Notes under the pieces: generated by a model
Databases searched by the model: none
Seen by the model: the letters and a program-made list of their open reading frames with translations, nothing else
What the model was told of the DNA's origin: nothing
Assembly (NCBI GenBank): GCA_958296135.2
Contig: CATQHZ020000001.1
Coordinates: forward strand, 4,864,001 to 4,928,000
Length of the DNA: 64,000 nucleotides
DNA from: an uncultured Poribacteria bacterium
Lineage (GTDB): Bacteria; Poribacteria; WGA-4E; WGA-3G
Direction of reading: 5' to 3'
Shown: piece after piece, positions 20,440-21,528 of the stretch
Position numbering within the stretch: position 1 is the first letter of the stretch
Layout: every line of letters starts with the position of its first letter
Made by a program: the position numbers and the translations under genes

Positions 20440-21528
20440 ATGATAAGTACACGAATTTTATTGGCACTCCTCGCCATGCAACTGATTGTTCTTCCGTACG
20501 GCTTCGCGCAAGAAAGCTGAGGCGCGTGAAGCAATCCCGCCATTCCGCGTAGCGGGATAAGTGAAGTCAGTTTGACTTCAAAGGAGACAGAAAAATTTCA
20601 GGCCGCACTCGGTATGATGCGATGGTTTGACGGACAAGGCGGACATCTCGAAGCAAAAGGGGTTTCGCCTACCGGAGAAGTGATACCTGTCCCTTTGCAC
20701 CGGCACCACGTCACCCTGAACATCCTCCGCATCGATGTTGGGTTAAAATACCAATTCAACTCCGGCTGGATGCTAGAAGCGATTGTGCCGTATGCGATTA
20801 AGGCGCAAGAGGCAACAGTGGAGAAAATTGAAGGCTATCCCATCACCGATACCGAAATGGATGCAATTTTGCGGAGCCGCGATAACCATCATCGAAGCGA
20901 AACCTACACGGGACTCCAAGACGGTGAGGTGTTGCTCGGCTACAACGCGCAAGGACTTCTCCAAAAAAGCGATGTTCTCGCCGCACGCCTCGGCACAACA
21001 GTGCCACTTGGAAGCACGGAGGCAAACCCATGGGAACTCGGTGAGAAGGGGCTGAAGCATCTCCATATCCAGTTCGGCAGCGGCACCTTTAACCCTATTG
21101 CTGAGCTCTCTTATCGCATGCGGCTCTACGGTGGACTCACCGCGAATGTGAACCTTCGCGGCAAGTTTCCGTTCTACGCAAACAGCAAAACCTATCGCGG
21201 TTCAAGGGAACTCACCTATATGGCAGGCGTGCAATACCGATTTACCGATTGGCTCTCTCTGCATGCCAGCTACCTTGGATTCTATCAATCCTATGCATTT
21301 TGGGCAGGGAAACAAGACATTAACAGCGGGCTCCGTTACAGTATTGCATCACTTGGCACTACTGTCAGAACACCTTATGATGCCACGCTGTTGCTAACCG
21401 TCGCGTTACCGTTGCAACAGGAGACGCTATACGACGACAGCAACGCGTTTTTAGACGGAACGTATGCGGAAAGCGACGCATTTGAATTCGGTCCGTTGGT
21501 TTCGTTAACGGTGCTCCACGCATTTTAA
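20440..21528 (+). CDS. Putative outer-membrane beta-barrel with N-terminal UxxU motif (two in-frame UGA, probable selenoprotein)
   Basis: Signal peptide ORF stops at TGA 20518, second TGA at 20527, same frame continues into the 318-aa ORF ending in Phe. Confidence 0.75.

Follow-up and report, generated by a model that had tools for sequence, protein, structure and literature searches.

The stretch of DNA analyzed here, referred to as the window, comprises 64,000 nucleotides from an uncultured Poribacteria bacterium, a sponge symbiont (GenBank assembly GCA_958296135.2, contig CATQHZ020000001.1, positions 4,864,001 to 4,928,000 of the forward strand). It encodes an outer-membrane β-barrel protein whose reading frame contains two UGA codons shortly after the predicted signal peptide. 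Comparison with homologous genes indicates that this gene very probably has a conserved double-selenocysteine (Sec) site and belongs to an uncatalogued family. The overall reading, an exported barrel with a Sec-Gly-Ala-Sec motif that is decoded by means of two RNA hairpins and serves in metal capture, is regarded as probable.

When both TGAs are read through, a frame of 362 codons extends from ATG 20440 to TAA 21526-21528. The N-terminal order is MISTRILLALLAMQLIVLPYGFA-QES-TGA-GGC-GCG-TGA-SNPAIPRSG, and the protein ends in ...VLHAF with Phe as the last residue. The list of open reading frames (ORFs) obtained with translation table 11 shows only a 318-aa ORF starting at TTG 20572. Start codon, signal peptide, TGA-GGC-GCG-TGA, open frame, length of 362 amino acids, and terminal Phe are all as described in the original prediction, which was made from the letters of the window; the hairpin atcccgc/gcgggat reported there is present at 20534-20540/20552-20558. 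The signal-peptide cleavage site was judged from the sequence pattern only, and a hydrophobic N-terminus ending in G-F-A/Q-E-S is kept among relatives. For one sample, possibly the source sample, the Logan contigs of two runs are identical to the whole stretch (0 differences).

A search of a protein database yielded 362 homologues at E<=0.001. All 120 listed homologues span just 84-91% of the query and begin downstream of the UGAs, and they were therefore called from an internal Met. For 29 relatives, all of them metagenome-assembled genomes (MAGs) of Candidatus Poribacteria with 51-74% protein identity, the DNA was fetched. The signal peptide and the motif Q-[EDQ]-S-TGA-GGN-GCN-TGA-S-N-P are in frame in 29 of 29 relatives, in line with the earlier argument that two TGAs at such spacing are unlikely to arise by chance. 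A second locus scan added 79 further loci, giving 108 loci in all. Among these, the motif is UxxU in 50, CxxU in 38, and CxxC in 19 loci and masked in one. The UxxU forms are UGAU (46), UPAU (3), and UAAU (1), and the CxxU forms are CPAU (35), CGAU (2), and CAAU (1). No residue other than TGA or Cys was found at either position in any readable locus of the 108, and a Zixibacteria locus provides one more UxxU form (UAGU). Among remote full-length database homologues, 11 of 13 have CxxC at the aligned columns, one has CxxW, and one has WxxW; the Trp residues in the homologues P0165 and P0176 are most simply explained as TGA codons called under another code. The homologues thus carry CxxC, CxxU, or UxxU at exactly aligned positions.

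One or two UGAs are found at the motif in 88 of the 108 loci. All 88 Sec-form loci besides that of the window have retained the signal peptide, the UGA(s), and the frame, at identities as low as about 37% and in several phyla. This bears on the alternative that the gene is broken or regulated by termination, in which case translation would stop at codon 27 and the barrel would be made from an internal start at TTG 20572 or ATG 20614. Such an arrangement corresponds to the way gene callers treat the window gene and its listed homologues, but a barrel made from an internal start would be without a signal peptide. In view of the retained signal peptide, UGAs, and frame, and of the replacement of UGA by Cys among relatives, a broken gene appears extremely improbable. 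The conserved TGAs of the relatives, the 108-locus set, and the identical Logan contigs also show that the TGAs are not assembly errors.

The genome from which the window is derived (5.19 Mb, 94.7% complete) encodes the machinery for Sec insertion. A tRNA-Sec gene was found with 78 bits against a cut-off of 47 and directly adjoins selB, while SelA and SelD were found with 518 and 351 bits, respectively; selA, selB, selC, and selD are thus all present. The SelD gene has an in-frame UGA of its own, at K-C-A-G-U. UGA also serves as an ordinary stop codon in this lineage, since, of the 2103 ORFs on the main contig C1 that have 300 aa or more, 468 terminate with TGA, and the barrel gene itself ends with TGA, after a conserved ...YSF, in 7 of the 29 relatives. 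The original prediction had proposed a double-selenocysteine site on an exported barrel, and the exchange with Cys, the presence of the sel genes, and the conservation of both TGAs bear this out.

A further alternative is that one or both UGAs are read as Cys by a SECIS-dependent tRNA (tRNA-ReC/SelC*; SECIS, selenocysteine insertion sequence), or that a mixture of Sec and Cys is inserted. Such tRNAs are reported to be enriched in genomes with UXXU motifs (PMC13582414), and position 1 of the barrel motif readily toggles between Cys and UGA. However, the tRNAs predicted by ARAGORN over the whole genome include a single tRNA-SeC (TCA) and a single tRNA-Cys, which is ordinary and 72 nt long. No second UGA-reading tRNA was detected in this 94.7% complete genome, although ARAGORN may miss unusual tRNAs. 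Seven of the 16 listed sub-threshold matches to the tRNA-Sec model were examined (L002-L008), and these are ordinary Leu, Ser, Trp, and Arg tRNAs. Insertion of Cys is therefore considered very unlikely.

In-frame UGAs interrupt at least ten other genes of the source genome; in the families searched, they were found in 4 of 12 peroxiredoxin-family, 4 of 7 HMA, and 1 of 3 molybdopterin-family matches. At G000:C1:3124150-3125330, a secreted protein with four tandem HMA domains is encoded, three of which have the site GMT-U-GxC and one GMM-C-DAC; each of its three UGAs has its own downstream hairpin of the AGUGCA-GG[GA]-UGCACU type. A β-propeller protein encoded on the minus strand at about C1:3466055-3466258 has a C-terminal Sec-HMA domain with the site GMT-U-GAC. 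The contigs of the assembly differ in base composition: the G+C content is 54.4% in the main contig, 36.8% in contig C2 (144 kb), 67% in C3, and 60% in C4, so that contigs C2-C4 may not derive from the same organism.

The history of the motif was followed in a tree with 111 rows, comprising 107 of the 109 loci and four outgroup proteins; the motif columns were excluded, and L070 and L071 were omitted due to masked letters. The Poribacteria rows form one group of 85 with a support of 100. The early branches of this group are all UxxU, and a clade of 35 CPAU rows as well as three CGAU/CAAU rows are nested within it; position 2 is Sec throughout (Table 1). Position 1 therefore appears to have returned to Cys at least twice, a direction of change that depends on a distant, long-branched outgroup. 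The tree requires six motif state changes in all. Many Poribacteria genomes encode both UGAU and CPAU barrel paralogues (L014/L132, L114/L129, L103/L125, and others), and the source genome has the UGAU form and a degraded remnant only. This remnant is a second barrel copy at G000:C1:632528-633145, consisting of pieces in different frames that are 67-73% identical; its middle is missing, and the signal peptide and the UxxU region are deleted. It lies directly after an aldo/keto-reductase gene, which is the position of the intact gene in seven relatives (L013-L017, L019, and L041). As the remnant occupies this site of the relatives, the copy in the window is probably a relocated duplicate.

The UGAs are followed by two RNA hairpins. 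In hairpin 1, a single 3' arm can pair with two alternative 5' arms. The 5' arm of the early register, AUCCCGC (20534-20540), starts 13 nt after UGA-1, and that of the late register, AUUCCGC (20542-20548), starts 12 nt after UGA-2. In an alignment of 30 sequences, 93% and 89% of the cells of the two registers are paired, with two and one compensatory pairs, respectively. In hairpin 2, all eight stem positions are paired in 30 of 30 sequences, and a compensatory pair (U-A in 22, C-G in 8) is formed via the wobble bases of Val and Leu codons. Its stem covers Ser, Glu, Ser, Thr, and Ser codons, none of which varies synonymously, while Ser and Arg codons elsewhere in the gene vary freely. The mean synonymous entropy is 0.68 in the hairpin stretch (18 columns) compared to 1.13 in the rest of the gene (160 columns; Mann-Whitney p=0.0012).

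The occurrence of both hairpins follows the motif state. In the hairpin-2 zone, a stem-loop with 6 bp or more occurs in 51 of 51 UxxU, 38 of 38 CxxU, and 4 of 19 CxxC loci; in the hairpin-1 zone, the numbers for one with 5 bp or more are 50/51, 38/38, and 4/19, respectively. Counted over distinct sequences, the late register of hairpin 1, located 10-15 nt after UGA-2, is found in 46/48 UxxU, 30/30 CxxU, and 3/18 CxxC forms, and the early register with the common 3' arm in 39/48, 8/30, and 0/18; a dual register arose in 20 of 1920 shuffles. G is the first loop base of hairpin 2 in 86 of the 89 Sec forms, whereas the four CxxC hairpins in this zone have unrelated sequences and C-first loops. In Acidobacteriota, the stem of hairpin 2 is unrelated in sequence but the GUU loop is retained. 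A control with two Cys-form RNAs was unclear, with L044 folding strongly in another way, and is superseded by the 19-locus test. In these two loci (L044:4082-4160, L045:4076-4155), base pairing is possible between the Pro-Ala codons of CPAC and a Glu-Ala-Gly stretch further downstream; CCGGC/GCCGG and CCUGC/GCAGG form a compensatory pair, seen in two sequences only, and this pairing may be due to chance or be a relic structure. An Rfam scan of 19800-21000 at E<=1 gave only four sub-threshold chance matches.

These observations suggest how two UGAs nine nucleotides apart could be decoded. SelB and Sec-tRNA would decode both codons via a two-hairpin module, in which hairpin 2 with its G-first triloop would be the SelB-binding element and hairpin 1 would act as a compact spacer that sets the geometry. 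Hairpin 1 would re-form one register further on, with one 3' arm serving two 5' arms 8 nt apart, so that a hairpin would be located 12-13 nt downstream of whichever UGA resides in the A site. The original prediction had rated its SECIS call as weak because the loop of the reported hairpin lacks an early G. This holds for hairpin 1, which mostly lacks it, but not for the better conserved hairpin 2 with its G-first triloop.

At ten other UGA sites in the genome, a stem of 5-7 bp begins 12-18 nt after the UGA, and the loops, which start with GG in eight and CG in two cases, lie about 17-23 nt after the UGA. Hairpin 1 has SECIS-like spacing, but its loop is unlike those of the other SECIS elements of the genome. 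Several points weigh against the two-hairpin mechanism. The distance to the start of the hairpin-2 loop is 40 nt from UGA-2 and 49 nt from UGA-1, compared to the roughly 17-23 nt found elsewhere, so that hairpin 2 could act as the SelB site only if hairpin 1 shortened the path. The loop of hairpin 1 is variable (CCA, CGA, AAG, or 11 nt) and mostly without an early G. The dual register is missing in 9 of 48 UxxU forms, yet it is present in 8 of 30 CxxU forms. In addition, the compensatory changes largely track clades and therefore represent few independent events. Taken together, the chances that the two-register and distal-hairpin mechanics apply as proposed are put at somewhat below even.

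An alternative is that both UGAs rely on hairpin 1 as their only SECIS, a single element at canonical spacing, and that hairpin 2 serves, for example, in ribosome pausing that aids co-translational targeting or in mRNA stability. The start of hairpin 1 at 12-14 nt after a UGA is as in the other SECIS elements of the genome, and one downstream SECIS has been proposed as possibly serving both UGAs of UXXU hydrogenases (PMC13582414). However, the variable loops of hairpin 1 mostly break the rule of a G in first or second position, which hairpin 2 obeys in nearly all Sec forms. Moreover, hairpin 2 is under stronger constraint and its GUU loop survives the replacement of the stem. Decoding by hairpin 1 alone is thus regarded as rather unlikely.

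The window protein (P0001) has no family in Pfam or NCBIfam, with 0 NCBIfam families at E<=0.01 and a sub-threshold match to OMP_b-brl as the sole match. Its structure was predicted with AlphaFold2 from a 50-row alignment that included 18 of the first 29 loci, eight Cys forms, and 23 further representatives. The model has a predicted local distance difference test score (pLDDT) of 86.2 and a predicted template modelling (TM) score (pTM) of 0.83 and shows a confident barrel of the 12-strand type from residue 53 on. A helix is predicted at residues 2-17, and residues 16-50, which hold both Sec, are of low confidence; according to the model, they may form a flexible arm that carries Sec-Gly-Ala-Sec at the mature N-terminus. 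By analogy with other barrels, this arm is most likely periplasmic. Six residues are invariant in the 50-row alignment (H69, H89, H150, H151, D161, and H207), and two more, H87 and H209, are nearly so.

A search of solved structures with the family profile gave 0 sequence matches. At the level of fold, Foldseek ranks FapF first, followed by the COG4313 channel 4RL8 and then FadL/TodX. The match to FapF (PDB 5O65/5O67; E 7e-12, target-normalised TM 0.63-0.70) concerns a barrel of similar size with an N-terminal extension ahead of it; however, the identity is 12-14% and fap genes are not located nearby. FapF is not known to have a Cys/Sec motif. The channel 4RL8 from Pseudomonas putida, a member of COG4313/PF13557 (Phenol_MetA_deg), has the same type of barrel fold (Foldseek E 9.6e-11, target-normalised TM 0.72). 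It is regarded as a channel for hydrophobic molecules. The nearest clusters of the barrel in the ESM Atlas carry PF13557, and 5 of 50 family members match this model weakly at E<=0.01. P0257 scores 19.3 bits against a cut-off of 22, and the window protein itself has no match to the model. In comparison to the COG4313 channels, the barrel family adds the N-terminal C/U-x-x-C/U-SNP arm and the invariant His set.

Hints at the function come from gene neighbourhoods outside the Poribacteria. In the Bacteroidota locus L044, the gene order is merTP (288 bits, cut-off 180), HMA, MerA (TIGR02053, 501 bits against a cut-off of 454), an HMA-thioredoxin fusion, and the barrel. Among the 19 CxxC loci, an HMA-thioredoxin gene is located just upstream of the barrel in 18, MerTP is encoded within 6 kb in 10, and MerA in 5. 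An HMA-thioredoxin gene is also found upstream of UxxU barrels in two Acidobacteriota loci, in L082, and in Zixibacteria, and the homologue P0136 has a C-terminally fused HMA domain. In L082 (1000-1800), which is from an unclassified MAG, the HMA-thioredoxin gene has two in-frame TGAs at its HMA metal site (GMT-U-PSG-U), which makes both the barrel and its partner double selenoproteins in this MAG. In the Polyangiaceae locus L143, a protein with a thioredoxin domain, in which an HMA domain was not recognised, is encoded upstream of a CxxC barrel.

Based on the pairing with HMA-thioredoxin proteins outside the Poribacteria, the merTP-merA operons in Bacteroidota, and the one HMA fusion, the barrel is, on balance, suggested to be a soft-metal channel with a Sec/Cys capture arm. 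The U/C-x-x-U/C arm would capture a thiophilic metal ion of the Hg(II)/Cu(I) class; the ion would cross the His-lined barrel, and the arm would hand it over to periplasmic HMA proteins. The Sec residues that the source genome places in exported HMA sites also speak for this function. Other observations speak against it. The barrel has no conserved neighbours in Poribacteria, and the source genome is without a convincing MerA, MerT, or HMA-thioredoxin orthologue, a more sensitive search for an HMA-thioredoxin partner having produced generic thioredoxin-like matches only. The link to metals is therefore transferred from other phyla. The many invariant His residues would suit Cu, Zn, or Ni no less than Hg. 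AlphaFold2 does not place the arm, whose periplasmic position is an assumption based on the usual topology of barrels.

The main rival to the function as a metal channel is a redox role together with the thioredoxin partner. In such a relay, electrons would pass between the C/U-x-x-C/U arm and the partner's thioredoxin domain, for instance for the reduction or repair of some component at the outer membrane, and the links to HMA and mer would be secondary. The most widely conserved partner does have a thioredoxin domain, which is the only one recognised in the Polyangiaceae partner. Motifs of the CxxC and UxxU type are typical of redox sites, and redox proteins make up the majority of the bacterial selenoproteins catalogued (PMC13188914). 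However, the partner nearly always has the metal-binding HMA domain as well. Genuine mer operons enclose the barrel gene in 5-10 of 19 Bacteroidota loci, one homologue carries a fused HMA domain, and the barrel has many invariant His residues. A redox relay is hence considered an improbable explanation, and the soft-metal channel remains the preferred function.

Table 1. Features of the barrel gene in the window
Feature	Position	Strand	Remarks
Full coding sequence	20440..21528	+	362 codons + TAA; frame, signal peptide, and motif kept in 29/29 relatives
Signal peptide, residues 1-23 (...LPYGFA, then QES)	20440..20508	+	Hydrophobic N-terminus
UGA-1, predicted Sec27	20518..20520	+	Reverted to Cys in some Poribacteria clades, as the tree suggests
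UGA-2, predicted Sec30	20527..20529	+	Sec in all 85 Poribacteria tree rows
Hairpin 1	20534..20558	+	3' arm GCGGGAU 20552-20558, two alternative 5' arms
Hairpin 2	20562..20580	+	8-bp stem UGAAGUCA/UGACUUCA, triloop GUU; putative SelB-binding part of SECIS
β-Barrel domain, residues 53-362	20596..21525	+	Invariant His/Asp, C-terminal Phe; AlphaFold2 and Foldseek

In the window, the neighbours of the barrel gene are unrelated to mer. An exported, His-rich YtkA-like protein (PF13115, 32 bits) is encoded upstream at 19281-20303. A weakly FMN_bind/RnfG-like protein is encoded at 21540-22502, its start being located 12 nt after the barrel stop codon. This is followed at 22670-24193 by a 507-aa protein with a signal peptide and a CxxCH haem motif, which gives a partial, below-cut-off match to the GEGP diheme family (NF041762, 58.7 bits); its C-terminal part ends in Phe and resembles another barrel. 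An operon reading derived from these neighbours (YtkA-like, FMN_bind-like, CxxCH, VWA) was rejected: in 31 other loci, none of them is found beside the barrel gene, and any given neighbour cluster is common to 10 of these loci at most. A conserved upstream element in close relatives, considered as a regulatory RNA, turned out to be the 3' end of the aldo/keto-reductase gene. The intergenic region upstream of the barrel gene (20313-20414) contains two copies of a palindromic unit, GCGCGGTTGCAAACCGCGC and GCACGGTTGCAAACCGTGC. Their core, GGTTGCAAACC, occurs 28 times on contig C1 compared to about 1.3 expected occurrences and is therefore a dispersed element resembling repetitive extragenic palindromic (REP) sequences. 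A promoter and terminator scan of 20250-21700 gave consensus matches only, which were not used.

Double-Sec motifs are known from a few other proteins. In the accessible part of a 2026 review (PMC13188914), UxxU is catalogued in Prx-like oxidoreductases, the metal-binding protein NF041115, and an FmdB-family protein, and one outer-membrane barrel selenoprotein with a single Sec, GSU2204/MtrB-PioB, is included in the prokaryotic catalogue. UXXU is also reported for Group 4 [NiFeSe] hydrogenases, Poribacteria included (PMC13582414). The original prediction had called a double-Sec barrel rare, which stands; with UxxU in a few bacterial families and one other barrel selenoprotein in the part of the catalogue consulted (PMC13188914), it is not unique.

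The UxxU protein NF041115 and the MerT/CopZ selenoprotein NF045683 likewise have Sec in a metal-binding motif and are related to mercury or copper handling, and the partner proteins of the barrel match these families below cut-off. In contrast to them, the barrel is without an HMA domain and without a model match, and its motif is located on a probably disordered N-terminal arm of a membrane barrel. GSU2204/MtrB-PioB (NF041027) is likewise an outer-membrane β-barrel selenoprotein (PMC13188914), but it has one Sec and belongs to a different, larger barrel family tied to multihaem cytochromes, and the window protein has no match to it. The UXXU hydrogenases resemble the barrel family in their CxxC/CxxU/UxxU variation, in their occurrence in phyla including Poribacteria and Acidobacteriota, and in the need to decode two UGAs 9 nt apart. 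However, they are cytoplasmic enzyme subunits with a single predicted SECIS (PMC13582414), whereas the barrel would be decoded by a two-hairpin, two-register module.

In the openly accessible literature searched, neither a description of the barrel family as a selenoprotein nor one of an outer-membrane component of mer operons was found. In the mer literature searched, passage through the outer layer is depicted only as diffusion. A more far-reaching proposal, to which we assign a low probability, is that the family represents an unrecognised outer-membrane entry and hand-off component for thiophilic metals that cooperates with a periplasmic HMA-thioredoxin partner. In Poribacteria, Acidobacteriota, and Zixibacteria, its arm would be a diselenide-capable Sec-x-x-Sec motif produced with the help of a bipartite SECIS, consisting of a distal SelB hairpin and a proximal re-forming hairpin. 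If this is true, mer-type systems would gain their first dedicated outer-membrane part, and the barrel mRNA would contain a new kind of bipartite SECIS, in which the proximal hairpin re-forms as the ribosome advances by three codons.

The barrels would constitute a new selenoprotein family that is without a Pfam or NCBIfam model and is systematically truncated by current gene callers. They provide a natural series of CxxC, CxxU, and UxxU forms with matched RNA elements, so that the decoding of two UGAs 9 nt apart is directly testable. The Cys forms hint that mercury-resistance operons of Bacteroidota contain an outer-membrane component that has gone unnoticed and has an HMA-thioredoxin protein as its partner. 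In sponge symbionts, selenium would be put into exported metal-binding sites, which bears on the handling of metals and selenium in the holobiont.

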